Shown here: positions 5,764-19,960 of the stretch, piece after piece
Numbering within the stretch: the first letter of the stretch is position 1
How the letters are laid out: every line of letters starts with the position of its first letter
Origin: Candidatus Rokuibacteriota bacterium
GTDB taxonomy: Bacteria > Methylomirabilota > Methylomirabilia > Rokubacteriales > CSP1-6
DNA length: 26,363 nucleotides
Reading direction: 5' to 3'
Assembly (NCBI GenBank): GCA_016184305.1
Contig: JACPCX010000187.1
Location: 1 to 26,363, forward strand
The notes under the pieces: model-generated
What the model was told of the DNA's origin: nothing
What the model saw: the letters and a program-made list of their open reading frames with translations, nothing else
The model's database searches: none
Translations under genes and position numbers: made by a program

Positions 5764-6054
5764 TCACTCCGGGGGCGGGAGCCGGTGGCGGGAGGCCAGC
5801 CCCTCGAAGGACGCCTCGATCTCGCCCGCGATCTCGGCGGCGACGGCATCGGGGCTGCCGGCTCGCTCGGCCTCCTCCCCTCGACTCCACCCCTCCAGGT
5901 AGGCGTCTGACGCCGAGGCGCCCGTGCGCATGGCCACGGCGTCGATGAGATCCTGGAAGCGCGGCGACAGCGGCCGACGCACCGTCCGGTCCCCGTCGGA
6001 GGCCTCGACGACCGACGGAATGCCCTGCCAGCGAACGATGCGGTAGCGCGCCAT
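5764..6054 (-). CDS. Small 'Virulence_fact' (PF13769-like) domain protein
   Basis: 96 aa from ATG 6054: W.GIPS.V...DG......LS.RFQ..ID..AM..G...SDAYLE.W, the recognisable pattern of this family (from recall, not a search). Confidence 0.75.
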   Translation of the reverse strand: MARYRIVRWQGIPSVVEASDGDRTVRRPLSPRFQDLIDAVAMRTGASASDAYLEGWSRGEEAERAGSPDAVAAEIAGEIEASFEGLASRHRLPPPE

Positions 6055-6099
6055 GGTCCGTATCCCGGCGCCCATTCTACCCAAACACGCCTCCTTCGC

Positions 6100-6128
6100 T
6101 TGACAAAGGTTCACCCCCCGCTTAGCCT
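6100..6128 (+). promoter_or_regulatory. Sigma70-type promoter of the DUF169-methyltransferase gene (leaderless)
   Basis: TTGACA (6100-6105) - 17 nt - TAGCCT (6123-6128) - 6 nt - ATG 6135; no Shine-Dalgarno sequence. Confidence 0.75.
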
Positions 6129-6134
6129 CCACCC

Positions 6135-7979
6135 ATGATCGATACCAAGACGGCGGAGCGGGAGCTCACGACCTATCTCCGGCCGCAGACCTTCCCCGTG
6201 GCCATCCGCATGCTCAAGCCCGGCGAGCCCATCCCCGAGCGCGCCAAGCGGCCCGCGCGCGACTTCAAGAAGCTCAGCATGGCGTGCCAGGTGATCGACA
6301 TGGCGCGCCGCTACGGCTGGATGATCGCGCTCACCCGCGAGGACCATATCTGCTCCCTCGGCATCACCGCCATCGGTTTCGACAGGCCCCTGCCGATCTA
6401 CAACGTGGGCACGCTCTGTGAGGGCATGTACACGGAGACGAAGGAGGCGGGACAGCGCTCGGAGGCAGCCATCGACAAGTTCGCCCCCGGCGAGTACGCG
6501 ACCCTCCTCGTCGCGCCGCTCGACCGCGCGGCATTCGAGCCCCACCTCGTGTGCGTCTATGGCAACCCGGCCCAGGTGATGCGCCTCACCCAGGCGGCGC
6601 TCTGGAAGCGGGGCGGGCGCCTGGCGTCATCCTTCGAGGGGCGCGCCGTGTGCGCCGACATCATCGTCACCACCATGCAAACCGGCGAGCCGCAGGTCAT
6701 CCTCCCCTGCTCCGGCGACCGCATCTTCGGCCAGACCCAGGACCACGAGATGGCGTTCACCATCCCGTGGCCGCGCATGGAGGAGATCATCGAGGGGCTC
6801 CGCGGGACCCACGCCGGTGGCATCCGCTACCCCATCACCCAGTTCATGGAGTACGAGGCGAAGATGCCGCCGCGCTACATGGAGGTGAACCGCCTCTGGG
6901 ACGCGGAGAAGGGCAAGGCCCCGCTCACCAACCGCGACCGCGTGGTGGCGGCCTACAAGCGCTCCTTCGCCGACCGGGTGCCGGTATACCCCATCGTCGC
7001 CTCCTTCGCCGGCACCCTGGACGGGCTCTCCATCGAGGAGTACTGCACGAACCCCGCCCGGGCCATCAAGGCGATGATGAACTACTACGAGCGCTACCAG
7101 CCGGACGTGGTGCTCGCCTACAACGACCTGGCGAAGGAGGCCGAGGCCTTCGGCTGCACGGTGAAGTACTCCGACTACGTGGTGCCCTCCATCGAGACGC
7201 ATATCCTCGAGGACAAGGCCGACCTGGCCCGGCTCACGATGCCGGACCCGTACCGGACAGCCAGGCTGCCCGGCTTCCTCGATCAGTGCGCGGCGCTCGT
7301 CAAGGCCGCCCCGCCGGCGGCCATGGGCGCGGTGGCGGTGGGCCCATGGACGATCGCCATGTTGCTCCGCAATCCCGAGACGATGCTGCTCGACACCTTC
7401 GAGGATCCCGCATTCATCCACGCGCTCATGCGGATCACCACGGACTTCTGCAAGGCCTGGGGCGAGGCCATCGTCACGACGAAGATCGGCCTGTCCTTCT
7501 CCGAGCCGACCGCGTCCAACAGCCTCATCTCGCCGGACAACTACCGCGAGTTCATCGCGCCCTATCACAAGGAGCTGGTGGACCACTTCAAGGCGAGGAA
7601 GGTGGGTCTCACGACCCACATCTGCGGGACCACCTACCCCATCTTCGAGGACCTGATCGCCTGCGGCTTCACCACGGTCTCCTTCGATCTGGACCAGCAG
7701 TCCGATCCGGCGCTCCACGTGGACCAGCTGAGCCGGTTCATGGAGGTCGCGCACGGGCGCGCCGTGGCCATCGGCAACGTGGACGCCACCCGGTTCGAGA
7801 CGGCCACCCGGGAGGAGATGGAGGCCGAGGTGCGGCGCTGCATCGACGCCGCGGCCAGGCAGTCCGGGTTCATCCTCTCCACGTCGTGCGAGATCCCGCC
7901 CCGCTCCGACCCGGAGATCGTGCGCTGGTTCATGGACACGGCCCACGACTACGGCCGCTACGACCGCCTCCTCGGGTAG
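6135..7979 (+). CDS. Fusion protein: N-terminal DUF169 (COG2043) domain plus C-terminal uroporphyrinogen-decarboxylase/MtaA-CmuA-family corrinoid methyltransferase domain
   Basis: Residues about 1-260: PVAI, ACQ...MARRYG, C.LG, GNPAQ.MRL, C.D, PCSGDR.FG...DHE (DUF169 pattern). Residues about 265-614: DRVPVYP, EAEAFG, GPWTIA, SEPTAS...ISP..Y.EF..PY, HICG (Zn-binding HxC), GNVD, FILSTSCEIP (third Zn ligand Cys). Confidence 0.85.
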   Translation: MIDTKTAERELTTYLRPQTFPVAIRMLKPGEPIPERAKRPARDFKKLSMACQVIDMARRYGWMIALTREDHICSLGITAIGFDRPLPIYNVGTLCEGMYTETKEAGQRSEAAIDKFAPGEYATLLVAPLDRAAFEPHLVCVYGNPAQVMRLTQAALWKRGGRLASSFEGRAVCADIIVTTMQTGEPQVILPCSGDRIFGQTQDHEMAFTIPWPRMEEIIEGLRGTHAGGIRYPITQFMEYEAKMPPRYMEVNRLWDAEKGKAPLTNRDRVVAAYKRSFADRVPVYPIVASFAGTLDGLSIEEYCTNPARAIKAMMNYYERYQPDVVLAYNDLAKEAEAFGCTVKYSDYVVPSIETHILEDKADLARLTMPDPYRTARLPGFLDQCAALVKAAPPAAMGAVAVGPWTIAMLLRNPETMLLDTFEDPAFIHALMRITTDFCKAWGEAIVTTKIGLSFSEPTASNSLISPDNYREFIAPYHKELVDHFKARKVGLTTHICGTTYPIFEDLIACGFTTVSFDLDQQSDPALHVDQLSRFMEVAHGRAVAIGNVDATRFETATREEMEAEVRRCIDAAARQSGFILSTSCEIPPRSDPEIVRWFMDTAHDYGRYDRLLG

Positions 7980-8022
7980 CCGATCACAGCGCGAGCGCTC
8001 AGGCTGTATCGTTTCTCGCACT

Positions 8023-8075
8023 CCCGATCTCCCCGGGCTGGCGATCCCAGTGGCGCCCCTCCGGGAAGAGCCGCG
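8023..8075 (+). repeat. Degenerate direct-repeat copy of the Uma2 gene 3' end (partner copy at 9063-9115)
   Basis: Manual ungapped alignment of 8023-8075 against 9063-9115 gives 46/53 identical positions. Confidence 0.85.
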
Positions 8076-8087
8076 ATGGCGCGATAC

Positions 8088-8122
8088 GCCGTATTGCGTT
8101 ACGGCACCCATGCTGGTAGGCT
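8088..8122 (+). promoter_or_regulatory. vapBC promoter with palindromic operator around the -35 element (leaderless)
   Basis: GCCGTA-ttgcgt-TACGGC inverted repeat at 8088-8105 encloses TTGCGT; 17-nt spacer; TG-g-TAGGCT extended -10 (8114-8122); ATG follows after 6 nt. Confidence 0.65.
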
Positions 8123-8128
8123 CCGGCC

Positions 8129-8332
8129 ATGGCCATCCAGAAGGTGACTGTGCACATCGATCGGGATCTGCTCCGCCGCGCCCGGGAGCGAACCGGCAAA
8201 GGGGTGAGCGTCACGATCCGCCAAGGCCTCGAGATCGTCGCCGCCAGCGAGGCCTACGATCGCCTGCGAGCCCTTCGCGGCAAGGTCAAGCTCTCCCTCG
8301 ATCTCGCCCGCCTCCGGGACGACCGCCGCTGA
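8129..8332 (+). CDS. vapB: Type II antitoxin, ribbon-helix-helix (VapB-like)
   Basis: 67 aa; KVTVHIDRDLL..A beta-strand/helix pattern typical of RHH antitoxins; directly upstream of and overlapping a PIN-domain gene. Confidence 0.8.
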   Translation: MAIQKVTVHIDRDLLRRARERTGKGVSVTIRQGLEIVAASEAYDRLRALRGKVKLSLDLARLRDDRR

Positions 8333-8721
8333 TCGCGCTCGATAGCAGCGCGCTTGTCTCGTACCTGGCGGGCGACGCCGGTGCGGACGTGGAGGCCACG
8401 GCGCTCGTTCTCGACCACAGGCAAGCCGTGCTTCCGCCGGTGGTGCTCTCGGAGCTGCTCAGCGACCCTGGACTGCCCGCTGCCGTCAGAGAGTCGCTAC
8501 TTCTCCTCCCGCGGCTGGAGGTGCTGGACGGCTACTGGGAGCGTGCCGGGCTCCTGCGGGCCCGCGTCCTCGCTCGGGGGCAGCGGGCGAGACTGGCCGA
8601 TACCTTGATCGCCCAGTCCTGCATCGACCACGACGTTGAGCTCGTGACCCGCGACGCGGACTTCCGGCACTTCGCGCGCGCCGGCGGGCTGCGCCTGTTC
8701 GGGGCACGGAGGATTCGATGA
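8329..8721 (+). CDS. vapC: PIN-domain ribonuclease toxin (VapC-like)
   Basis: IALDSS, LSELL, LADTLIA and LVTRDADF supply all four acidic PIN residues. The only coupled start is CTG 8329, overlapping the antitoxin TGA. Confidence 0.88.
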   Translation: MIALDSSALVSYLAGDAGADVEATALVLDHRQAVLPPVVLSELLSDPGLPAAVRESLLLLPRLEVLDGYWERAGLLRARVLARGQRARLADTLIAQSCIDHDVELVTRDADFRHFARAGGLRLFGARRIR

Positions 8722-8876
8722 ATCCCGCGGTCATCGGAGTCGGCATCGAGGGAACGGGCATCGCCGAAGTGCGCAGCGGCTGCGCTCCCGGGGGTCCTGC
8801 AGCGGCGTTAGCGCGAGCGCCTCGATGCCGCCGTCGAACCCACCGTCAAGATCCGGCCGCGGGCTGAGCCGCGAAG

Positions 8877-9110
8877 GTCGAGGTCCTCTCCCCCACCACC
8901 GCCGCCTACGACCGCACCACCAAGGCCCGCCGCTACGCCGCCCTCGGCGTCCCACACCTGTGGCTCGTGGACCTCGAGGCCGGCCGCGTCGAGTGCCACC
9001 GCCGGGAGGGCGCCAACTATCGGCTGCTGCTCGCCGCCGGCCCCGCCGACACGCTTACCCACCCCGACTTCTCCGGGCTGGCGATCCCGGTGGCGCCCCT
9101 CTGGGAATAG
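8877..9110 (+). pseudogene. Uma2/DUF820 endonuclease-fold gene, 5'-truncated remnant
   Basis: Reads VEVLSPTTAAYDRTTKARRYAALGVPHLWLVD...LTHPDFSGLAIPVAPLWE*, the Uma2 C-terminal half. An in-frame TGA lies at 8865-8867 and the upstream PD motif is absent. Not in the ORF track. Confidence 0.85.
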
Positions 9111-9351
9111 GCGCGGCCGCCCCGCGCCCGTGTGCCAGATCGCACGGAGCGCCGGTACGTCTCCATGTCGCGCGCCGCCCGGAGATGCATGGACCGCGCG
9201 TGGGCGGCAAGCGTCTCGATCTCCCGGTACGCGGAACGGCCGCTGCGCTCCCGGGCAATGAGCCAGAGATGCCCTACGTCCGCATCATGGTCTCCTTTGG
9301 CGCAGACGACGGGCTTGCGGGAGGAGAGGTCGGAGGCTTTCGATCGCGTCC

Positions 9352-9822
9352 ATGTGGCGGGGCCACGTCGTCTCGATCCACGTCACTGGCGAAGCCTCGG
9401 CGCCCATGGACACTCTCGCCGAGGCGCGCGCGGTGCCCGGCCGCGGGCTGGAGGGCGACCGGTACTTCCTGGGCACGGGCTTCTACTCCAACCGTCCGGG
9501 CGTCGGGGGGCGGGAGATCACCCTGATCGAGACGGAGACGCTGGACGCTCTCGCCAAGACGCTCAACATCAAGCTCCCGGCCGTCGAGTCCCGCCGCAAC
9601 ATCGCCATGTCCGGGGCACCACTCAACCACCCGGTGGACCGCGAGTTCTGGGTGGGCGAGGTGCGTCTCCTCGGCACGCGGCTCTGCGAGCCGTGCATGC
9701 ACCTGGAGCAGCTGACGGGGCTTCAGGGCGTGATGAGCGGGCTCGTCCACCGCGGGGGCTTGCGCGCGCGGATCCTCAACGAAGGCGTGATCCGCACCGG
9801 CGACGCGATCCGGCCGGCGTGA
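9352..9822 (+). CDS. MOSC-domain protein (YiiM-like)
   Basis: GLEGDRY, RRNI, CEPC and GGLRARIL..G.IR.GD motifs. Confidence 0.9.
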   Translation: MWRGHVVSIHVTGEASAPMDTLAEARAVPGRGLEGDRYFLGTGFYSNRPGVGGREITLIETETLDALAKTLNIKLPAVESRRNIAMSGAPLNHPVDREFWVGEVRLLGTRLCEPCMHLEQLTGLQGVMSGLVHRGGLRARILNEGVIRTGDAIRPA

Positions 9823-9826
9823 AACA

Positions 9827-9860
9827 GCAAGGGCGCGGTGGGAACCCACCGCGCCCTTGC
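9827..9860. terminator. Perfect hairpin between convergent genes, probable bidirectional terminator
   Basis: GCAAGGGCGCGGTGGG-aa-CCCACCGCGCCCTTGC, a 16-bp perfect inverted repeat between the MOSC and RRM stop codons; only short U-rich tails. Confidence 0.75.
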
Positions 9861-9882
9861 CCTTCTCGGTTCGACTCGGCTG

Positions 9883-10269
9883 CTACCAGCGGAACGGTTT
9901 CTTGGAGGGCGGCACGCCGTAGGCGCCCCGATCCCCACCACCACCACCACCGCGGCCGCCGCCGCCCGGACGTCCGGGGCCGCGACCGCCCCCACGAGGC
10001 CCGCCGCCCCCCCCGCCCGGCGCGCGCGGGTTGGACACATTGACCGTGAGCTTGCGCCCGTCCAGGTCCTTGCCGTTCAGCTCGGCGATGGCCCGCTGGG
10101 CCTCCTCCGCCGTGGACAGCTCGACGAAGCCGAAGCCGCGCGACTGCCCGGAGAACTTGTCGGTGACCACCGACGCCGACTCCACCGTCCCGCACTGCGC
10201 GAAGTACTCCCGCAGGGTCTCGCTGGTCGTGGAGTATGAGAGCCCGCCGACGTACAGTTTCGCTGCCAT
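9883..10269 (-). CDS. RRM (RNP-1) RNA-binding protein with Gly/Arg-rich tail
   Basis: KLYVGGL (RNP2), RGFGFVE (RNP1) and an RGG-rich tail. AAGGAG RBS precedes ATG 10269. Confidence 0.95.
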   Translation of the reverse strand: MAAKLYVGGLSYSTTSETLREYFAQCGTVESASVVTDKFSGQSRGFGFVELSTAEEAQRAIAELNGKDLDGRKLTVNVSNPRAPGGGGGGPRGGGRGPGRPGGGGRGGGGGGDRGAYGVPPSKKPFRW

Positions 10270-10363
10270 GTGAATCTCCTTCGGTTGTTCCTCGGCCCTG
10301 ACGCACGCCCCGCAAGGCCGAGGAGCCCATCGGAGGCACTGGTGGACCACACACACCAGTGTG

Positions 10364-10391
10364 ATTTTACACCACGATCGCGCGACCGCAA
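10364..10391 (-). promoter_or_regulatory. Sigma70-type promoter of the RRM gene
   Basis: Minus strand TTGCGG (10391-10386) - 16 nt - TAAAAT (10369-10364), an AT-rich patch in GC-rich DNA. Confidence 0.6.
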
Positions 10392-10424
10392 GGCGCGTGA
10401 CGGGACCATAACTCCGCTCCAAGG

Positions 10425-10829
10425 ATGGTCCCGCCGGGGGAGGGTGTCGGGGCCGAGCCCCCCTGCAGACCGCCGCGCCCGAGCAGCACGAACTGCCCCG
10501 GCGGCCGCGTGCGGTCCCCCCGGCGACGCCCGGAGCAGGCTGGGACGGGCCGAGGGACGGCCGGGCGGGGGGGTGCGCGGGGTCCCGAGCCTGATCCCGC
10601 GCGCGGGCTCGGCCAGCCGCTCGCGGAGCCAGAGGTCCAGCGGCGATCCGCGCCGGGTGCCGGCCGTCACCACGATGGGCGCGCCGCGGGCCGGAACGAA
10701 GCAGAGGCCGCCCGCGGTGGCGCCGGAGAGCGTCACGAGCCGCTCGAGGGTGCGGGCGAATCCGACCTCGGGGGAGGCGGCCCGACCCGGCGTGGCCCGA
10801 AGGTCGGCGAGGAGCCGCCCGATCTTCAT
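10425..10829 (-). pseudogene. Probable truncated/frameshifted gene remnant (possibly the N-terminus of a GAF-type sensor)
   Basis: ATG 10829 lies just after the D-aminoacylase stop. MKIGRLLADL...FARTLERLVTLSGATAGGLCF...IVVTAG reads as protein-like, then the plausible frame shifts (GQFVLLG in another frame) and runs into the RRM promoter. The 3' boundary is approximate. Confidence 0.35.
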
Positions 10830-10836
10830 CCGCCGG

Positions 10837-12426
10837 TCAGCTTTTTCTGAGCACCTGGCCGGGAAGGGCGCCGGTGTGCTCGCCCCCGTCGACGACCATG
10901 CGGCCGTTGACGAGCACGCCCTCGATCCCGCGGGCGTACTGATGCGGATCCTCGTAGGTGGCAAGGTCGGCGACACGCTCCGGGTCGAACAGCACAACGT
11001 CCGCCTTCGCCCCCACCCGGAGCACACCTCGATCGGCGAGGCCCAGCCGCGCGGCGGGTAGGGCCGTCATCTTCCTCACGGCGGCTTCCAGCGTCAGCAC
11101 GTGCTGGTCGCGGACATAGCGGGCGAGGACGCGCGGGAAGGTCCCGTAGCTGCGCGGGTGGGGCTTGCCGGCGGCCAGCTCCCCGTGGGCCGCCAGCGAC
11201 GAGCCGTCCGAGCCGATCATCACGCAGGGGTGGGCGAGCGCGCGGCGGAGGTCGGCCTCGTCGAGCTGGAAGAGGATCATGTAGCCTTTCCCCTTCTCGG
11301 CGAGGATCAGGTCGATGCATGCATCGAGAGGGTCTTGCTGCCAGCCCGCGGCGATGTCGGACAGGCGCCGTCCCTGGGCCTCCGGCCGCGACGGGGCATA
11401 GGCGACCATGATGTCCTCCCAGCCGAGCCCCCGCATGAGCGTCTCGCCGCCGCCGGTGAGCTCCGCACGGACGCGGGCGCACACGGCGGGGTCGCGGAGA
11501 CGCTCCAGCATGGCGTCGATGCCGCCTTCCAGCACCCAGTCGGGCAGGAGCGTGCGCAGCGTGGTGCTGGAGGCGGTGTACGGGTAGACGTCGGCCATCA
11601 CATCGAGGCCCTCGGCGCGGCCGGCGTCGATGAGCGCGAGGGCGTCCTTGACCTTGCCCCAGCTGGGGCGTCCGGCCGCCTTGATATGGCTCACCTGGAC
11701 CGGCAGCCCTCCCTCGCGCCCCACGCGGATGGCCTCGCTCACCGCGTCGAGGAGCGTGGCCCCTTCGCCGCGGATGTGGCTGGCGTAAAAGCCGCCGCAG
11801 GCCGCGACCCGCCGCGCCACGGCCACGATCTCCGCCGTGGCCGCATAGGAGCCCGGCGCGTAGATGAGCCCCGTGGCGAGCCCCGCGGCGCCCTGGGCCA
11901 TCGCCTCGTCGGCGAGGCGCTCCATCGTCGCGAGCTCTCGGGCGCTCGGCTCCCGCCGCGCGAAGCCCATGGCCGCCAGCCTGAGCGTGCCGTGGCCCAT
12001 GAGCTGGACGACGTTGACCGCCACGCCCCCGTCCTCGTAGCGGCGGAGGTACTCGCCCATCGAGCGCCACGAGAAGTCCATGCCCGGCGGCAGGTAGAGG
12101 GCGAAGCCCTTCATCTCCTCCCGGAACTCGTCCGAGACGGGCGCGGGCGAGAAGCCGCAGTTGCCGACGACCTCGGTGGTGACGCCCTGGCGGATCTTGG
12201 ACTCGGCGCGGCGGTTGGCCCAGAGCCGCCAATCCGAATGCGAGTGGATGTCGATGAAGCCGGGCGTGACGGTGAGCCCCGCGGCACCGATGGTCCGCCC
12301 CGCGCGCTCGCGGGAGAGATCCCCGATGGCGGTGATGGTGTCTCCCACGAGCCCCACGTCGGCGCGCGCGCCGGGGGTGCCGGTGCCGTCGATGACGGTG
12401 CCGCCCTCGATCTTGATGTCAAGCAC
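10837..12426 (-). CDS. N-acyl-D-amino-acid deacylase (D-aminoacylase, amidohydrolase superfamily)
   Basis: PGFIDIHSHSD, QGVTTEVVGNCG, SHIR, VSHIK, IGSDG and HPRSYGTFPRVL. Likely start is GTG 12426 (MLDIKIEGG). Confidence 0.92.
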   Translation of the reverse strand: MLDIKIEGGTVIDGTGTPGARADVGLVGDTITAIGDLSRERAGRTIGAAGLTVTPGFIDIHSHSDWRLWANRRAESKIRQGVTTEVVGNCGFSPAPVSDEFREEMKGFALYLPPGMDFSWRSMGEYLRRYEDGGVAVNVVQLMGHGTLRLAAMGFARREPSARELATMERLADEAMAQGAAGLATGLIYAPGSYAATAEIVAVARRVAACGGFYASHIRGEGATLLDAVSEAIRVGREGGLPVQVSHIKAAGRPSWGKVKDALALIDAGRAEGLDVMADVYPYTASSTTLRTLLPDWVLEGGIDAMLERLRDPAVCARVRAELTGGGETLMRGLGWEDIMVAYAPSRPEAQGRRLSDIAAGWQQDPLDACIDLILAEKGKGYMILFQLDEADLRRALAHPCVMIGSDGSSLAAHGELAAGKPHPRSYGTFPRVLARYVRDQHVLTLEAAVRKMTALPAARLGLADRGVLRVGAKADVVLFDPERVADLATYEDPHQYARGIEGVLVNGRMVVDGGEHTGALPGQVLRKS

Positions 12427-12553
12427 GGGCAACCGAGGCCTCGGTGCGCTCGATCTGCGCGAGGCACGCGGTGACAAGGTCCACCGGCGAGAGCGATCCG
12501 GCGCGGATCCGCCGAGCGGCCTCGGCTGCGGGGAGATCGTGGAGGTCGGGCAT
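12419..12553 (-). pseudogene. Amidase (amidase-signature/GatA family) remnant, N-terminus only
   Basis: MPDLHDLPAAEAARRIRAGSLSPVDLVTACLAQIERTEASVARA* (44 aa) is the typical amidase N-terminal helix pair. Its stop overlaps the D-aminoacylase start. Not in the ORF track. Confidence 0.8.
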
Positions 12554-12557
12554 CGGG

Positions 12558-12671
12558 CTAGCGGAGGGCCTCGAGGACTTCCGCGACGACCTCGAACCGC
12601 AAGATGGCGCCCATGGCGCCGTCGCCCAGGAGGGGGCGCTCGGCCAGACGCGCGACGAAGGGGGCGGCCAT
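12558..12671 (-). pseudogene. yitJ: Scar of a bifunctional homocysteine S-methyltransferase/methylenetetrahydrofolate reductase gene (YitJ-type)
   Basis: MAAPFVARLAERPLLGDGAMGAIL|RFEVVAEVLEALR* (37 aa): an HMT N-terminus with DGAMG fused to a segment resembling the YitJ C-terminal helix. The HMT part is solid; the YitJ assignment rests on 13 residues. Confidence 0.65.
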
Positions 12672-12672
12672 G

Positions 12673-13194
12673 CTAGCGCGCCGCCTGCTCGCGGGCCGCG
12701 AGCGCGCCGAGGATCCGTGACACGACCTGATCGGGGCCGAGGCCCGTGGTGTCCACGCTGAGGTCGGCCTGCCGGTAGAAGGGCTCGCGCGACCGGCAGA
12801 GCGCCTCCACCTCGTCGCGGGTCCGGCCCGCCAGCATGGGCCGCGCGCCCGCGCGCAGGGCCCGCTCGTAGAGCGCGCCGAAGTCGCCCGCGAGCCAGAT
12901 CACGGTGCCGAGCGCGCGAAGAGCCTCCATCCGTCCCTCGCGGCCCGGCAGGCCGCCCCCCGTGGCGATGACGCCGCTGGTCTTGAGGCGGAGGACGCGC
13001 AGCGTCTCCTCCTCGGCAGCGCGGAAGTGGGCCTCGCCGTGCCGGGCGAAGATCTCGGGAATGGAGCAGCCCTCCCGGGCGGTGATCATGTCGTCGGTCT
13101 CGACGAAGCAGCGGCCGAGGCGCCTGGCCAAGAGGCGCCCGACCGAGGACTTGCCCGCGCCCATGAAGCCCACGAGGATCAGGTTCTCGGGCAT
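12673..13194 (-). CDS. aroK: Shikimate kinase
   Basis: LVGFMGAGKSSVG P-loop, GEAHFR..E, IATGGG and RPML motifs. Alternative start at ATG 13206. Confidence 0.93.
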   Translation of the reverse strand: MPENLILVGFMGAGKSSVGRLLARRLGRCFVETDDMITAREGCSIPEIFARHGEAHFRAAEEETLRVLRLKTSGVIATGGGLPGREGRMEALRALGTVIWLAGDFGALYERALRAGARPMLAGRTRDEVEALCRSREPFYRQADLSVDTTGLGPDQVVSRILGALAAREQAAR

Positions 13195-13210
13195 GACAGG
13201 CGCCATCGTA

Positions 13211-14254
13211 TCACTTCCGCTCCCAGGCCGTCCCCTCGCCCCGCCGCATGGGCTCCACCCACAGCTGCCGCACCACCTCCCACACGCCCGCCAGGAGCGG
13301 AATGGCGACGAGGGCGCCCACGAGGCCCGCGAGCTGGACGCCCGCCAGGATCCCGAGCAGCACGGCCACCGGATGAAGCCCGGTGGCGCGGCCGATGAAC
13401 TGCGGAATGAGGAACTTGCCCTCGAGGAGATTCGCCCCCCAGAACAGGAGGGCCGTCCAGAGCGCCAGCGTGGGCGAGATGTTGACGGCGGAGAGCAGGC
13501 CGAGCACCGCCGCCGCCGGCGAGCCGAGGAACGGGACGATGTTCAGCGCCGCGGCGACGCCGCCGATCAGCAGCCAGTACGGTACGCCGAGGAGGCCGAG
13601 TCCCGCGGCGATCACCGCCCCGACGCACAGGCTCACGACGAGCTGGCCGCGGACGTATCCGCCCATGACGGCCAGCACCGGCCCGGCCAGGGCCGCCGCG
13701 CGCTCCCGGTGCGCGGGGGGCAGCAACGCTGCCAGCGCGCGACCGATGTGCTCGGCGTCGATCACGAGGTAGGCCGCCAACACGATGACGAGGAAGAAGC
13801 CCACGACGGCGCCGATGACCCCGGCCGTCGCGCGCAGGGTGTTCTCGATCAGGATCTTGCCGATGCCCGCCAGCCCGTCACCGCCCGCCGGAACTGCCGG
13901 CAGCGGGATCTCCCAGCGCGCCCCCCAGGCGATCACCTGCGCGGCCCAGCCCTTCGCGTTCTCGACGAGCGCCGGGAGCTGGCCGGCAAACTGCGTCCCC
14001 TGCTCGACGAACGCGGGGATGAGGAAGCGCCCGAGCACGGCGACCACGAGCGCGGCGCCCAGGTAGACGCCGGCCATAGTGGCGATGCGGGGGACGTGGC
14101 GGCGGTCCCCCCAGCGCGCCGCCGGCAGGATGGCCGCCGCCAGGATCAGCGCGGTGAGGAGCAGCATCCAGAGCTGCCACGTCTGCGCGAACACCCACAC
14201 CGCCGCGGCAGCGACAAGCAGCCGCCCGATGGTCGCCCAGGGCAGGACGCTCAC
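13211..14254 (-). CDS. AI-2E (PerM/TqsA/UPF0118) family transporter
   Basis: GYVRGQL, NIVPFLG, LEG.FLIP...G...GLHP and G.VGALVAIP motifs. GTG 14254 overlaps the upstream TGA. Confidence 0.92.
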   Translation of the reverse strand: MSVLPWATIGRLLVAAAAVWVFAQTWQLWMLLLTALILAAAILPAARWGDRRHVPRIATMAGVYLGAALVVAVLGRFLIPAFVEQGTQFAGQLPALVENAKGWAAQVIAWGARWEIPLPAVPAGGDGLAGIGKILIENTLRATAGVIGAVVGFFLVIVLAAYLVIDAEHIGRALAALLPPAHRERAAALAGPVLAVMGGYVRGQLVVSLCVGAVIAAGLGLLGVPYWLLIGGVAAALNIVPFLGSPAAAVLGLLSAVNISPTLALWTALLFWGANLLEGKFLIPQFIGRATGLHPVAVLLGILAGVQLAGLVGALVAIPLLAGVWEVVRQLWVEPMRRGEGTAWERK

Positions 14255-14985
14255 CGATGCACGGTCCGGTCGGCGGGCGCGCGGCGGAAGGCGCAATCGG
14301 CCATCCAGCAGCGGCGGCACTGGGTGAAGTAGTGGTCCACGCGGGCCTCCGGCCCGATGCCGACGAGGAAGGAGATGGTCTTGACCGGCATCATGAAGCA
14401 CGCCGCGTTGAGCGCGACCCCGATGGACGTTCCCGGGCAGAGGCGGAACAGCTCCCGCTGCTGGGCCGTGTCCCAGCCCGCGTAGCCCGGGCTGATGCGG
14501 TTGGTCACCCGGATCCCCTCGGCGATGGCATCCTGGCACAGGAGGTCGTTGACGTGCTCGGCCAGGCTCTCGACGGCGGCCGAACCCACGCTGTCGAGCA
14601 TCACCGCCAGCGGGAGATCGTGGGCGTCGAAGAGCGCTCGCACCTGGTCCTCGAGAGGCTGGCCCACGGTGCAGACGCCGGCGCCGACACTCGTGAGCGC
14701 ACCCCAGAGCCGGCCGACATGCGGGATGCGCAGCTGCTCGCCGGCGGCCTCGATGTGGCCGGCCTCCTGGCCCGAGACCGGGACGGCGCGGTACACGCAG
14801 CGCGGCTCCATGAGCCGCTCGCCGAGGGCGAGAGCCTCGTCGAAGAGGGCCATGACATCATCCGTGGGGACATCAATCCCCTTCTTGTAGCCCTGGAGGC
14901 GCAGGACCTCGTCGGGATCGACGCGAACGGGCAGCCCCTCGATGACGAGGGGCTCGGGGGACCGGACGGTGAGGACCTCGCTCAC
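14251..14985 (-). CDS. Stand-alone B12-dependent methionine synthase reactivation (AdoMet-binding)-like domain protein
   Basis: CTVG..LE, LDSVGSAAVESLAE, RISPGYAGW...QQ..LF, IGV.L...CFMMPVKTIS and a C-terminal CxxCxxxxC. GTG 14985 overlaps the upstream TGA. Confidence 0.85.
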   Translation of the reverse strand: MSEVLTVRSPEPLVIEGLPVRVDPDEVLRLQGYKKGIDVPTDDVMALFDEALALGERLMEPRCVYRAVPVSGQEAGHIEAAGEQLRIPHVGRLWGALTSVGAGVCTVGQPLEDQVRALFDAHDLPLAVMLDSVGSAAVESLAEHVNDLLCQDAIAEGIRVTNRISPGYAGWDTAQQRELFRLCPGTSIGVALNAACFMMPVKTISFLVGIGPEARVDHYFTQCRRCWMADCAFRRAPADRTVHR

Positions 14986-15905
14986 CGCTGACGGCGGGAG
15001 CGGACGACCTCGGCGATGAGGCGGACATGCTCGGCGCCGGAGCCGCAGCAGCCGCCGACGATGCTGCAGCCGGCGTCGAGCAGCGCGGGGTACTCCTTCG
15101 CCATGGCCTCGGGCCCGAGTTCGTATGTGGTCCGATCCCCGGAGGTGATGGGCAGGCCCGCGTTGGGGTACGCGACGAGCGGCACGGAGGTGGCGGCGCG
15201 CATCTCGCGGATGATGGAGATGGCCCGGTCGGGGCCGCGTCCGCAGTTCATCCCCACGATGTCGGCCCCCGCGGCCACGAGGTTGCGCGCGACGTCTGCC
15301 GGGCTCTGGCCCCACATGGTCCGGTCGCGGTCGTGCAGCTCCTCGTACTGGAAGAACATGGTGGCCATGACCGGCCGGTCGGTGGCCGCCTTGCAGGCCC
15401 GGATCGCCGCCACGGCCTCCTGGGGGAACATCATCGTCTCGACGGCGAAGATGTCCACGCCGCCCTCGGCCAGCGCCTCAGCCTGCTCCCTGAACGTCGC
15501 GACGTACTCCTCGTCGGTGGTGTCGCCAAGGGGCTCGTACTCGGCGGGCAGCCGGCTCGTGGGCCCGATGGAGCCCGCCACGTACCCGCCGGGCGGGCAC
15601 ACGGAGCGGGCCAGCCAGGCTCCCTTCTCGTTGAGCTCGCGGTTGCGGTTGCCGATCCCGTACTCGTTGAGCTTGAGCCGGGTGGCGCCGAAGGTGTTCG
15701 TCTCGACGAGGTCGGAGCCAGCCGCGAAGTACCCCGCGTGGATGCCGCGCACCACGTCACCGTGGGTGTCGTTCCACAGCTCGGGGCAGGCGCCGTTCGC
15801 GAGCCCGGCCTCGAAGAGGGCCGTGCCGTAGCCGCCGTCGAAGACGAGGAGCTCGCCAGCCTGCACCCGCTCGACGATCTCCCAGCCGCGGGCTCGGCCG
15901 GCCAT
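14982..15905 (-). CDS. Homocysteine S-methyltransferase domain protein (stand-alone MetH N-terminal module)
   Basis: FDGGYGT, AGSDLVETNTFGA, VAGSIGP, ETM, GMNCG, YPNAGLP and GGCCG, with the three Zn-binding Cys. Confidence 0.92.
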   Translation of the reverse strand: MAGRARGWEIVERVQAGELLVFDGGYGTALFEAGLANGACPELWNDTHGDVVRGIHAGYFAAGSDLVETNTFGATRLKLNEYGIGNRNRELNEKGAWLARSVCPPGGYVAGSIGPTSRLPAEYEPLGDTTDEEYVATFREQAEALAEGGVDIFAVETMMFPQEAVAAIRACKAATDRPVMATMFFQYEELHDRDRTMWGQSPADVARNLVAAGADIVGMNCGRGPDRAISIIREMRAATSVPLVAYPNAGLPITSGDRTTYELGPEAMAKEYPALLDAGCSIVGGCCGSGAEHVRLIAEVVRSRRQR

Positions 15906-16585
15906 CACGCCGCGGCCACCGGGACGCCCATCAGCGCCTTCGCCCGCACGACCGCCAGCGTGGAGTCCTTGGCGTAGCCGTCGGCGCCGATCTCATCGCA
16001 GTACGCCTGCGTGACGGGCGCGCCGCCGATCATGACCTTGACGCGCTCGCGCAGCCCCGCTTTCTGGAGCGCGTCGATGGTGCGCTTCATGCCCGGCATG
16101 GTCGTGGTCATCAGGGCCGAGATGCCGACGATCTGCGCGCCGTGCTCCTCAACCGCCGCGACGAACTTCTCTGGCGCCACGTCGCGCCCGAGATTGTGCA
16201 CCTTGAAGCCGGCGCCCTCGAGCATCATCCCGACCAGGTTCTTGCCGATGTCGTGGAGGTCGCCCTGGGCGGTGCCGATGACGACCACACCGAGCGACTG
16301 GCCGGCCGCCCCGGCGGCGGTGAGGAGCGGCTTGAGCAGGTCGAGCCCGGCGTACATGGCCCGAGCCGACAGGAGCACCTGCGGCACGTAGTACTCGTTC
16401 CGCCTGAACTTCTCGCCCACGACATCCATGCCGGGGATGAGCCCCCGGAAGATCAGGTCGATGGGGCGGAGCGAGAGCGCCAGCCCCTCTGTGGTCATCC
16501 TGAACACCGCGTCCTTGTCGCCCAGGATGAGGGCCCTCGACATGGCGGGGAAATCGAAGCCATCGAAGCTCGGCGATGTGCTCAT
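15905..16585 (-). CDS. Stand-alone corrinoid (cobalamin-binding) protein, cap plus Rossmann domains (MetH/MtaC/MttC-like)
   Basis: GLIPGMDVVG..F...EYYVPQVL cap, GDLHDIGKNLV (DxHxxG), SALMTTT and MIGGAP. Confidence 0.95.
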   Translation of the reverse strand: MSTSPSFDGFDFPAMSRALILGDKDAVFRMTTEGLALSLRPIDLIFRGLIPGMDVVGEKFRRNEYYVPQVLLSARAMYAGLDLLKPLLTAAGAAGQSLGVVVIGTAQGDLHDIGKNLVGMMLEGAGFKVHNLGRDVAPEKFVAAVEEHGAQIVGISALMTTTMPGMKRTIDALQKAGLRERVKVMIGGAPVTQAYCDEIGADGYAKDSTLAVVRAKALMGVPVAAA

Positions 16586-16662
16586 GCCCGGATTCTCCCA
16601 CAGGCCCGAAGAGCTCCGCAAGGCGAAGGGGCGTCCGACCCGCCCGCTCTAGGCCATTCGGC

Positions 16663-18578: not shown

Positions 18579-19586
18579 CTATGAGTGGCGCGGGGGCTCC
18601 CCGTCCAGCAGCCGGGAGAGCGGCTCCCTGAACGGGAAGAGGCTGAAGATTCCGCCCGTGTGGACGAAGCACAACCGCTGGCCCAGCGCCCTGGGGTCCT
18701 TGCGGAGCGTGTCCAGGAGCCCGGCGAAGGCCTTGGCGGTGTACACGGGGTCGAGCACCACGCCTTCATCGCGGGCGAGCCGGACGATGACGCGAAGCTC
18801 CTCGTCGCCTACCGCGGCGCGCCCCATGCCCTGATAGCCGTCGAGCAGGTGGATCGTCTTCGGGACCTCGATGGCCAGACCGAAGCGGGTGATAGCCTTG
18901 ACCATCGTCCGGGCGATGTAGTCGCGGACCCGGTCGGCCGGGAACGCGATGGGGACTCCCACCACGTCCGAGGGCAGGCCCGCGAGCTGCTTGCCCATGA
19001 GCAGCCCGGCCTGGCTGCCGCCGCTGAACGCCGTGATGACCACCGAGTCGAAGCGCGGCGCGCCCTGGCCGATCTGCCCGGCCAGCTCCACGGCGCACTC
19101 GAGGTAGCCGAGCGCGCCCACCTCGTTGGAGCCGCTCTCCGGGATGACGTAAGGCCGGCCGCCGCGCTGCCGCACCTCCTCCGCGAGCCCATCCAGCGCC
19201 TCGTCGACCCGCTCGAACTCGGCATCGGACAGGTAGCGGATGTCGGCGCCGAGCAGCCGGTCCAGGAGGAGGTTGCCGTCGTAGGTCGCGGGCTTCCCAC
19301 CCTTGACGGCGAGCACGGCGCGCATTCCGAGCCGCGCCGCCACCGCCGAGACCGCGCGACAGCAGTTCGACTGCAGCGTGCCGCAGCTGATGAGGGTGTC
19401 GGCGCCCTCGGCCGCGGCCTCGCCCACGAGGAACTCCAGCTTGCGGACCTTGTTCCCCGATTCGAGCAGGCCGGTCAGGTCATCCCGCTTGAGGTACAGC
19501 TCGACGCCGAGCTGGCGGGAGAGGCGGTCGAGCTTGAGGATCGGCGTCGGACAGAGCGCGAGCGGATAACGCGGCGGCATTGCCAT
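18579..19586 (-). CDS. D-cysteine desulfhydrase/ACC deaminase-family PLP enzyme
   Basis: LKRDDLTG...SGNKVRKLEF (PLP Lys), QSNC, GNLLL, LDPVYTAKA and HTGG. Start ATG 19586. Confidence 0.9.
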   Translation of the reverse strand: MAMPPRYPLALCPTPILKLDRLSRQLGVELYLKRDDLTGLLESGNKVRKLEFLVGEAAAEGADTLISCGTLQSNCCRAVSAVAARLGMRAVLAVKGGKPATYDGNLLLDRLLGADIRYLSDAEFERVDEALDGLAEEVRQRGGRPYVIPESGSNEVGALGYLECAVELAGQIGQGAPRFDSVVITAFSGGSQAGLLMGKQLAGLPSDVVGVPIAFPADRVRDYIARTMVKAITRFGLAIEVPKTIHLLDGYQGMGRAAVGDEELRVIVRLARDEGVVLDPVYTAKAFAGLLDTLRKDPRALGQRLCFVHTGGIFSLFPFREPLSRLLDGEPPRHS

Positions 19587-19642
19587 GCCGTCATGGTAGC
19601 ACGCGCCTCTCCCACCCCGGCCCGGCGCTCCCGGAACGGGCG

Positions 19643-19960
19643 TCAGGGCGTTGCCTGCTCCGTCTTCAGAGTGACCGCGATGGGGGCGAAGTCGTAGGAG
19701 GGGAAGACCTGGTAGCGGAAGGCGCCCCATGCCTTCTGCTCCATGTACCGGTTCAGCGCGCGCACCTTGTCGGCCTTGACTCGGAGGTGGATCACGAAGC
19801 CGAAGGACATGGCCACGACCCAGGAGATCAGCTCGCTCCCCTCCGGCGGGAAGTCACGGTAGAAGCCGGTCTTCCTCAGGTGGGCCATGATCTCGTCGAG
19901 GGTCTTGGACTGGTCGTGGTGGAGCAGGACCGTGAGCATCACGTGATTGTCGCCGGGCAT
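19643..19960 (-). CDS. Hypothetical protein, 105 aa
   Basis: GGAGG RBS, strongly GC3-biased codons and globular composition (FPPEG.E..SW.V...AWGAF). No function recognised. Confidence 0.75.
   Translation of the reverse strand: MPGDNHVMLTVLLHHDQSKTLDEIMAHLRKTGFYRDFPPEGSELISWVVAMSFGFVIHLRVKADKVRALNRYMEQKAWGAFRYQVFPSYDFAPIAVTLKTEQATP

Follow-up and report, generated by a model that had tools for sequence, protein, structure and literature searches.

What supplies methyl groups to a corrinoid protein that is encoded together with a homocysteine S-methyltransferase, when no pterin-binding module is found nearby? This question is raised by a 26,363-nucleotide (nt) stretch of DNA (hereafter, the window; GC content of about 71%) that constitutes contig JACPCX010000187.1 (C221) of GCA_016184305.1, a metagenome-assembled genome (MAG) of an uncultured member of the Rokubacteria (Methylomirabilota; 3.2 Mb, 239 contigs, 88.8% complete by marker genes), an abundant lineage of soil and groundwater bacteria. 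On its minus strand, the window encodes a trio of proteins, namely a stand-alone corrinoid protein (the carrier), a stand-alone homocysteine S-methyltransferase (HMT) and a protein similar to the activation domain of MetH (ACT), each neighboring pair of genes overlapping by 4 nt, as is apparent from the coordinates. On the plus strand, it encodes a protein in which DUF169 is fused to an MtaA-like methyltransferase. We consider it possible, with a probability of about 40%, that the trio operon and the fusion are two separate pieces of one multi-component B12-dependent methyl-transfer system typical of Rokubacteria, in which the methyl group of a thioether or selenoether would pass to the carrier and from there to homocysteine.

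The proposed relay would start from a donor whose methyl group is bound to sulfur or selenium. This group would be transferred to Co(I) of the carrier by the MtaA-like domain of the fusion or by a stand-alone paralog with 64% identity to it. The HMT would move the methyl group from the carrier to homocysteine, yielding methionine without methyl-tetrahydrofolate, and a dedicated activase and/or ACT would rescue the carrier once it is oxidized to Co(II). That these proteins share the carrier is an inference, as are the donor, the direction in which the methyl group moves and whatever part DUF169 may play; as for the output of the relay, the fact that the operon ends in YitJ in relatives points to methionine synthesis.

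The genes were placed by profile searches, with Pfam on 59 open reading frames (ORFs) of the window and with NCBIfam. Distribution was surveyed in 121 genomes of the phylum, each at least 80% complete, which include 73 other genomes of the same family (further families are denoted f2, f3 and so on), and neighborhoods were counted over 80 related loci; the surveyed genomes are related to one another, hence not independent.

The DUF169-MtaA-like fusion

The fusion gene (positions 6135–7979, plus strand) encodes a protein of 614 amino acids (aa), with DUF169 at residues 11–221 and a URO-D/MtaA barrel at residues 265–606. Both parts are recognized by Pfam, DUF169 (PF02596) with a score of 196.5 bits against a cut-off of 27, followed by URO-D with 213.7 bits. 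The best NCBIfam match is MtaA/CmuA (TIGR01463), with 121.5 bits, below the cut-off of 235.4. The original prediction of an intact MtaA/UroD-family enzyme fused to DUF169 about 6 kb from the trio is thus confirmed, the fusion gene ending 6.3 kb from it. The AlphaFold2 model of the fusion has a pLDDT (predicted local distance difference test) value of 95.8, and among solved structures, MtaA of Methanosarcina mazei (PDB 4AY7) is the closest, both by sequence (E-value of 7e-14) and in a Foldseek search (E-value of 7e-23, template modeling score of 0.88 on the target). Of the predicted zinc ligands, H495 and C585 are present in all 36 aligned sequences and C497 in 35 of them. According to Kountz and Balskus (PMC10418091), such a His-Cys-Cys site marks the sulfur and selenium methyltransferases of this superfamily, and O-demethylases replace the cysteines with carboxylates.

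Over full-length matches, the fusion is 76–99% identical within its own family, and its 120 closest 90% clusters show 82–94% identity. At 50% clustering, just three near-full-length representatives are left (P0122, P0125 and P0127), and stand-alone DUF169 proteins (about 260 aa) and stand-alone MtaA-like proteins (about 345 aa) are common at this level. In an alignment of 53 DUF169 sequences, C51, C73, C173, G194 and R196 are invariant or nearly so. The domain folds confidently on its own (pLDDT of 96.9), yet matches no fold in the PDB convincingly: the best Foldseek hit has an E-value of 0.28, a sequence search yields nothing below 0.39, and a comparison with 48,161 chains using VIA-align gives a best Z-score of 4.9, to thiolase/ketosynthase-like structures, which is under the noise level stated for the tool.

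The stand-alone MtaA-like paralog, present in many genomes of the family, is 64–66% identical to residues 257–614 of the fusion. The copy in the source genome, located on contig C121, scores 125 bits against the NCBIfam MtaA/CmuA model and 33 against hemE. No corrinoid gene lies beside this paralog in the three genomes examined; in one of the three, it overlaps a gene for a luciferase-like monooxygenase by 4 nt (L161, 6657–8746), which suggests co-translation.

In family f6, DUF169 occurs on its own. In two loci of one genus (L154, 8213–9782, and L155, 7908–10123), a stand-alone DUF169 protein that is 56–59% identical to the N-terminal domain of the fusion is encoded between an MBL-fold gene and a divergent gene for a PduO-type cobalamin adenosyltransferase. 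This neighborhood is a second hint, from a single genus, of a connection between DUF169 and cobalamin.

A predicted partner of the fusion

By the precedent of their family, MtaA-like enzymes need a corrinoid protein as a partner. Most genomes of the family have two matches to corrinoid domains which, in the places listed, are the trio carrier (78–100% identity) and a match of 34–37% identity within a long frame of MetH size. Trio-type orthologs of the carrier are listed in 71 of the 73 genomes, and some match is found in all 73. Judging by these profile matches, the trio carrier appears to be the only stand-alone corrinoid protein in most relatives, so that the MtaA-like enzymes would have just this protein to work with. 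The trio itself contains no donor-side methyltransferase, as far as profiles and motifs go.

A similar argument applies to the activase. The source genome encodes a complete ATP-dependent corrinoid activase of the RACo type, a protein of 617 aa in which Fer2 is combined with the linker, middle and C-terminal domains of RACo. Its gene is on contig C215, unlinked to the trio. Since MetH brings its own activation domain, this protein likewise points to the trio carrier as its probable substrate.

Modeling of the complex between the fusion and the carrier, which had been suggested along with the original prediction, gave a positive result. The model passed with a score of 0.65, compared to 0.00 for the best of three controls; 116 of 157 solved complexes attained this mark, as did 2 of 215 mismatched pairs, counts that apply only approximately because our own alignments were used. 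Separate runs agree in at least 94% of the contacts, and the pLDDT of the partner is at least 77. At the modeled interface, the barrel face of the fusion (residues 414–527) meets the cap helix and the His-loop of the carrier; DUF169 is not in contact. The complex model supports, but does not demonstrate, binding of the fusion to the carrier.

Another donor-side enzyme, MttB of the glycine betaine type, was considered as a general loader of the carrier and excluded, being present in 1 of the 73 family genomes. The single MttB of the source genome is encoded beside a second corrinoid protein on contig C224, in a cluster (G000:C224:10447–17408; L024, 4448–11409) of genes for a histidinol-dehydrogenase-like protein, the MttB-family protein, the second corrinoid protein, a DUF364/DUF4213 protein, a cupin and an OYE-type flavoprotein. 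By its gene content, this is probably a quaternary-amine demethylation cluster without an acceptor-side methyltransferase of its own. A search for MesX (PF08908) gave no match in the source genome; the control likewise gave no match anywhere.

Phyletic distribution and gene linkage

ACT, used as a marker of the trio, is present in 72 of the 73 genomes of the family, in all genomes of f2 (7), f3 (1), f7 (1) and f8 (2), and in four of the seven f9 genomes, and is missing in the 16 genomes of f5 and the 11 of f6. The fusion is found in all 73 family genomes (in some as fragments) and in the same numbers as ACT in f2, f3, f7, f8, f9 and f5 (0/16); f6 has stand-alone DUF169 only, in 4 of 11 genomes. 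The RACo-type activase is present in 68/73 genomes of the family, 5/7 of f2, 1/1 of f3, 0/1 of f7, 1/2 of f8, 7/7 of f9, 0/16 of f5 and 0/11 of f6. Across the 121 genomes, a common phyletic pattern is thus followed by the trio, the fusion and the activase, which is suggestive.

The trio and the fusion also tend to be located near each other. By a hand tally of the listed places, ACT and the fusion are on one contig in 44 of the 73 family genomes, at a distance of 4.7–23 kb; the other 29 genomes have them on separate contigs, or have just a fragment of, or no match to, one of the two. In f3 (G117), the fusion lies 0.9 kb from, and is convergent with, the string of genes for the shikimate-kinase-like protein, ACT, HMT and the carrier; in the two f8 genomes (G014 and G047), the gap between the trio and the fusion is 3.4–3.9 kb; and in one f9 genome (G120), an HMT gene is 2.2 kb from an adjacent pair of DUF169 and MtaA genes. 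The intervening genes differ in f3 and f8, and the proximity is kept. Several genomes of f2 and f9 have the trio and the fusion on different contigs or 52 kb apart. As evidence of a shared function, distribution and linkage taken together are suggestive.

The trio

The carrier (15905–16585, minus strand) consists of 226 aa if translated from the ATG, with an alternative TTG start at 16621, and contains the B12 cap (PF02607, 72.4 bits) followed by the B12-binding domain (PF02310, 105.4 bits), with a D-x-H-x-x-G motif that is invariant in our alignment (A2). Comparison with NCBIfam models yields 200–210 bits for the cognate corrinoid proteins of the MtbC/MtgC type versus 130 bits for MetH, so that by sequence the carrier is nearer to MtbC/MtgC-type proteins than to MetH. 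The HMT (14982–15908, minus strand; 308 aa) matches PF02574 over profile positions 1–283 of 283 (235.8 bits), retains both zinc-cysteine motifs, NCG and GGCCG, in its translation, and is the sole PF02574 match of its assembly.

The third protein, ACT (14251–14985, minus strand; 244 aa), is the least typical one. Its match to PF02965 is weak, with 24.5 bits against a cut-off of 25, 23.0 bits in the whole-genome scan and 25.6 with frame neighbors; the f7 ortholog reaches 44.4 bits. The R-x-S-P-G-Y motif, which is of the AdoMet type, is invariant in 10/10 sequences (alignment A5). In addition, a C-terminal CxxCxxxxC motif is invariant in 10/10 orthologs from five families, and C150 is nearly invariant too. 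This cysteine pattern suggests a metal-binding or iron-sulfur site in ACT; we know of no similar motif in the activation domain of Escherichia coli MetH. In one genome of the same genus (G112, 98% complete), ACT was not found with the query used, and the carrier (91% identity) and the fusion are on one contig (C75); the ACT gene may have been lost in this close relative.

Profiles and motifs thus bear out the claim that the overlapping genes supply the corrinoid, homocysteine-binding and reactivation modules of a MetH-type system, with the caveat of the weak PF02965 match. Equally, the absence of a pterin-binding module from the window holds, as no match to Pterin_bind (PF00809) was detected in the 59 ORFs.

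Deletion of yitJ

In relatives, the operon continues downstream of the trio into a gene that contains PF02574 and PF02219 and would thus encode a fusion of an HMT with methylenetetrahydrofolate reductase (MTHFR). In the related locus L037, which is 97–99% identical to the window, the intact gene scores 688 bits against NF006396 (bifunctional HMT/MTHFR, YitJ; cut-off of 453). What is left in the window is an ORF of 37 codons (12558–12671, minus strand), in which the first 21 and the last 13 codons of yitJ are joined and which does not qualify as a member of NF006396. By blastn and translation, 1734 nt of L037 are missing between positions 12600 and 12604, a net loss of 1731 nt, that is, 577 codons in frame. 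In the Logan contigs, the joint is crossed in runs X1 (567 nt, depth of 7.9) and X4 (276 nt, depth of 72.7), both from one study, whereas contigs from runs X5 and X6, which come from two other studies, stop following the window at 12600 and then continue into intact yitJ as in L037. Hence, the deletion was not introduced when the MAG was assembled, and DNA carrying this allele does exist. The MAG may itself have come from the sample of X1 or X4, and the spanning contigs do not show that the allele is widespread. The original prediction that an HMT-type gene of the operon, probably yitJ with its MTHFR, had been reduced to a scar is fully borne out.

No MTHFR was detected in the source assembly, which is an incomplete MAG. 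Among the other family genomes, 70 of 73 have MTHFR, most of the listed matches being in frames of about 600–800 aa on the contig of the trio, and yitJ is the only MTHFR match in most relatives. With yitJ deleted, the relay may carry more of the methionine supply in this strain than in its relatives; if there is truly no MTHFR in the genome, any methionine synthase that depends on folate would run out of substrate, and either the relay or enzymes of the core-MetE type would have to supply methionine. Alternatively, the strain could be a methionine auxotroph, and the sequence does not decide between these options. The source genome contains four genes for core-MetE-like proteins (PF01717, about 340–350 aa) on contigs C41, C188, C161 and C191. 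The one on C41, cut by the contig end, passes the methionine synthase model PRK09121 with 419 bits against 392, and the other three are below the cut-offs. By sequence similarity, these are possible folate-independent methionine synthases that would compete with the relay as a source of methionine.

MetH and the folate setting

The only Pterin_bind match in the source assembly is dihydropteroate synthase (DHPS) on contig C94, in a MAG that is incomplete. Most genomes of the family have two such matches, DHPS and a second one, which, among those printed, is in frames of about 670–1650 aa; B12-domain matches occur in frames of up to about 2000 aa. A third Pterin_bind match is absent in most family genomes. 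In the four genomes of genus g16 (90–93% complete), the trio and YitJ are present, with at most one Pterin_bind match.

The absence of MetH from the source MAG is uninformative, because the whole region of the MetH locus is missing from an incomplete assembly of 3.2 Mb: the 11.4 kb MetH locus of a genome of the same genus (G037), flanks included, has no counterpart there except for a short repeat. This repeat, of about 100 bp with copies 89–99% identical, is present in 41 places in the source genome (e.g., C38:11121–11220 and C38:12239–12338) and in none in the window, and is also found at the MetH locus of G037; it looks like a REP- or MITE-like element (repetitive extragenic palindrome or miniature inverted-repeat transposable element).

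Since most relatives show Pterin_bind/B12 frames of MetH size besides the trio, the trio is not the organism's MetH broken up. Rather, it is a further system, conserved in the lineage and as a rule found alongside MetH. The original view of the trio as a split MetH that lacks its pterin module is not supported in this respect.

Alternative explanations

The scheme in which the fusion loads the carrier and the HMT passes the methyl group to homocysteine, put forward in the original prediction, is favored by the MtaA fold, the His-Cys-Cys site, the shared distribution, the apparent lack of another stand-alone carrier and the complex model, and is disfavored by the presence of MetH in relatives and of MTHFR in the operon. 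A number of observations weigh against the relay. The direction of transfer is not fixed by sequence, given that the fusion and the HMT are both zinc-thiol methyltransferases. The complex model cannot separate this carrier from other corrinoid proteins, and close cousins of true partners pass as well. A distribution shared clade-wide is weak evidence, since the genomes are not independent, and in f9, where presence varies, ACT and the fusion agree in just five of seven genomes. Linkage within the family could be inherited synteny, as synteny extends to the genes for Acs, an RRM protein and an amidohydrolase, and in none of the genomes examined are the fusion and the trio in one operon; the original statement that they belong to separate operons is correct for the window, where they are on opposite strands. 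Thus, in the comparison of occurrence and synteny, the shared pattern and the conserved linkage stand, within the limits set by kinship and by the f9 genomes. None of the three lineages of stand-alone DUF169 (genus g40 of f6, a second copy in g16 and the metagenomic P0144) adjoins an MtaA-like or corrinoid gene. The operon of the relatives, which continues with a SKI-family kinase and ends in the MTHFR-bearing YitJ, was in its ancestral form not built to be folate-free; the long-frame Pterin_bind and B12 matches fit full-length MetH in most relatives; and the combination of MTHFR in 70/73 genomes with a MetH-like second Pterin_bind match indicates that the trio lives in a folate-using setting. 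Finally, genomes of the same genus measure 4.7–5.4 Mb, against 3.2 Mb for the source MAG, which makes genome-wide absences unreliable.

This folate-using setting raises the alternative that the trio is a folate-dependent synthase of the split-MetH type and that the fusion is unrelated to it. The carrier would then receive its methyl group from methyl-tetrahydrofolate, and the loading protein could be a pterin-binding partner from another locus, full-length MetH, whose folate module would act in trans, or a partner that has escaped recognition. Given the continuation of the operon into YitJ, the near-universal MTHFR and the second Pterin_bind match of most relatives, this possibility has to be taken into account, but we consider it unlikely: a third Pterin_bind match that could represent a dedicated partner is missing in most family genomes, the g16 genomes combine the trio and YitJ with at most one such match, and we know of no precedent for loading of a carrier in trans by the folate module of MetH. 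In favor of this alternative, a separate pterin subunit is used by the split MetH of Phaeobacter and Ruegeria (PMC5764234, PMC12478193). It is similarly unlikely that the fusion and the trio are functionally independent, their proximity being an inherited gene order of the clade, with the fusion acting on free cobalamin, with another partner or with DUF169 as a cofactor module, and the trio depending for its loading on some other protein, e.g., the stand-alone MtaA-like paralog alone. The two operons are indeed on different strands with 6.3 kb of unrelated genes in between, they are separated in several f2 and f9 genomes, the paralog is available in many genomes of the family, and the stand-alone DUF169 gene of f6 next to the adenosyltransferase gene has no MtaA-like gene near it. 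Independence is less easily reconciled with the survival of proximity in f3 and f8 despite the differing intervening genes, with the lack of another stand-alone corrinoid protein in most family genomes and with the passed complex model.

Because the direction of transfer is not fixed, the relay could also run in reverse, with the carrier methylated from methionine by the HMT or from S-adenosylmethionine (SAM) by ACT, and the fusion methylating a thiol, selenol, sulfide or selenide for detoxification, volatilization or biosynthesis. This is an improbable scenario. Enzymes of the MtaA family do naturally methylate thiols from methyl-corrinoid proteins, and ACT retains the AdoMet-type R-x-S-P-G-Y motif. 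Yet demethylation of methionine is energetically unfavorable and, to our knowledge, not known for PF02574 enzymes; stoichiometric use of SAM through an activation domain would be wasteful; and the operon is found in a methionine-synthesis setting with YitJ. Methylation in this direction has been observed in vitro for the MtaA-like Mlp2, which methylated selenide from methylcobalamin (PMC10418091).

The forward relay, from a methylated sulfur or selenium compound to methionine, is therefore the reading that we prefer. In a farther-reaching version of it, DUF169 would be the module that recognizes or processes the donor in demethylases of a new, corrinoid-dependent class acting on thioethers or selenoethers. 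With the carrier, the HMT and the activase as its other components, the system would amount to a methionine synthase independent of folate and able to sustain a natural strain that has lost its only detected MTHFR. This version is rather doubtful.

If the relay exists, abundant soil and groundwater bacteria would make methionine from methylated sulfur or selenium compounds via a B12 carrier, bypassing folate, and the sulfur and selenium cycles, the demand for B12 and one-carbon metabolism in soils would be linked. DUF169 is widespread and has no known function, and the relay would provide it with a testable biochemical setting. The in-frame deletion of yitJ would amount to a natural experiment on whether such a relay can replace methyl-tetrahydrofolate-dependent synthesis of methionine. 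At the same time, the locus is a warning against trusting the lack of a module in a MAG, as most relatives have a complete MetH.

Other genes of the window

Between the trio and the yitJ remnant, the window encodes a SKI-family (shikimate-kinase-like) kinase (12673–13206, minus strand; Pfam SKI, 138.3 bits), a conserved member of the operon that is positioned between the trio and yitJ. It falls under all NCBIfam cut-offs for shikimate kinases (the best score is 134.1 versus 186) and scores 96.9 bits, against a cut-off of 197, with the model of the Desulfovibrio-type homoserine kinase. A second SKI gene is present in the source genome (G000:C4:12875–13306), and the operon copy may not be AroK. 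In the genus of the source genome, a gene for an AI-2E family transporter (13211–14257, minus strand, the start being approximate and taken from the 347-aa L037 ortholog; Pfam, 152.1 bits) is inserted between the trio and the kinase, an arrangement seen in 2 of the 80 related loci.

About 2 kb from the carrier gene, there is a gene implicated in sulfur metabolism (18579–19730, minus strand) that encodes a pyridoxal phosphate-dependent enzyme. With 292.7 bits, this protein passes the cut-off of 289.4 for the D-cysteine desulfhydrase family (TIGR01275), and it shows sub-threshold similarity to the D-cysteate sulfo-lyase CuyA and to XcbE of bacterial coenzyme M biosynthesis. MBL-fold genes, which are found by the carrier, by the f6 DUF169 gene and by the f7 fusion, were considered as a recurring neighbor and dismissed, since they are not orthologs (28–30% identity).

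Divergently from the fusion gene, the window encodes a small protein of family PF13769 ("Virulence_fact"; 5764–6132, minus strand, the true start being probably near 6054; Pfam, 54.3 bits). Such a gene lies beside the fusion in 32 of the 80 related loci; a search of the protein Atlas (from residue 27 on) gave clusters of the same family only, and no publication was found with the accession. On the other side, the DNA differs right after the stop codon of the fusion gene (7975–9298 in the window versus 5097–8347 in L037) despite the 97–99% identity of the two loci: the window has a PIN/VapC-like gene, and L037 has genes for a xylose-isomerase-like TIM barrel protein and for a B12-binding radical SAM protein. 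A variable island thus adjoins the fusion gene at its 3' end; no extra copy of this end was found in the window. A search of the window with Rfam detected no riboswitches at gathering thresholds and, at E-values of up to 1, just three implausible matches.

Comparison with known systems

The nearest characterized counterpart is MtgBCDE, with the three-part split methionine synthase, of Ruegeria pomeroyi and Phaeobacter inhibens. This system (PMC12478193, PMC5764234) resembles the one in the window in that a stand-alone corrinoid protein and a stand-alone PF02574 enzyme make methionine, and donors other than folate can serve to load the carrier as well. There are three differences. MtgBCDE includes the pterin-binding MtgD, whereas the Rokubacterial operon has no pterin subunit, and no stand-alone Pterin_bind protein beyond DHPS was found in the source genome or in most relatives. 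The donor enzyme of MtgBCDE is of the MttB type, which is almost missing in the family of the source genome, the candidate donor enzyme here being the DUF169-MtaA fusion. Reactivation is assigned to RamA-like and DUF1638 proteins there; here, a MetH-activation-like protein is encoded in the operon, and the counterpart of the RamA-like activase is the unlinked RACo-type protein.

Methyl-sulfur or methyl-selenium metabolism is also the proposed role of the type 1 mlp clusters; the authors of PMC10418091 propose that methyl groups of methyl-S and methyl-Se compounds might be recycled into methionine. These clusters are tight, belong to obligate anaerobes, mostly Firmicutes, and encode several Mlps, with neither HMT nor DUF169 among their products. 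The Rokubacterial system differs in its dispersed parts, its explicit HMT, the fusion of the MtaA-like domain to DUF169 and the host. The co-location of type 1 mlp genes is not seen here, with the fusion 6.3 kb from the carrier on the other strand, and the MtaA-like paralog and the activase on two further contigs.

With MtaA, MtbA and MtsA of methanogens (e.g., 4AY7), the fusion shares the UroD-type barrel, the His-x-Cys...Cys zinc site and the predicted docking of the corrinoid protein on the barrel face; it differs from them in its identity of about 22% in the fold alignment, its score below the TIGR01463 cut-off and the extra N-terminal DUF169. Coenzyme M is presumably not to be expected in this host. 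With MetH, the trio shares modules of the Hcy, Cob and activation-like types with their characteristic motifs; in contrast to MetH, it lacks the folate (pterin) module, its modules are separate proteins, the carrier is MtbC/MtgC-like and ACT has the extra invariant CxxCxxxxC. A form of MetH with a separate activation protein is reportedly represented by TM0268/TM0269 of Thermotoga. YitJ is represented by the intact gene of relatives, a proper member of that family, and in the window by the in-frame remnant. No publications on DUF169-MtaA fusions or on the trio operon were found in a search that covered main texts. In sum, the split-MetH/MtgBCDE and mlp-cluster systems are the known kinds to which the Rokubacterial system is akin; what sets it apart is the combination of an HMT and a MetH-type activation-like protein in one operon, the DUF169 fusion, the dispersed parts and the Rokubacterial host.

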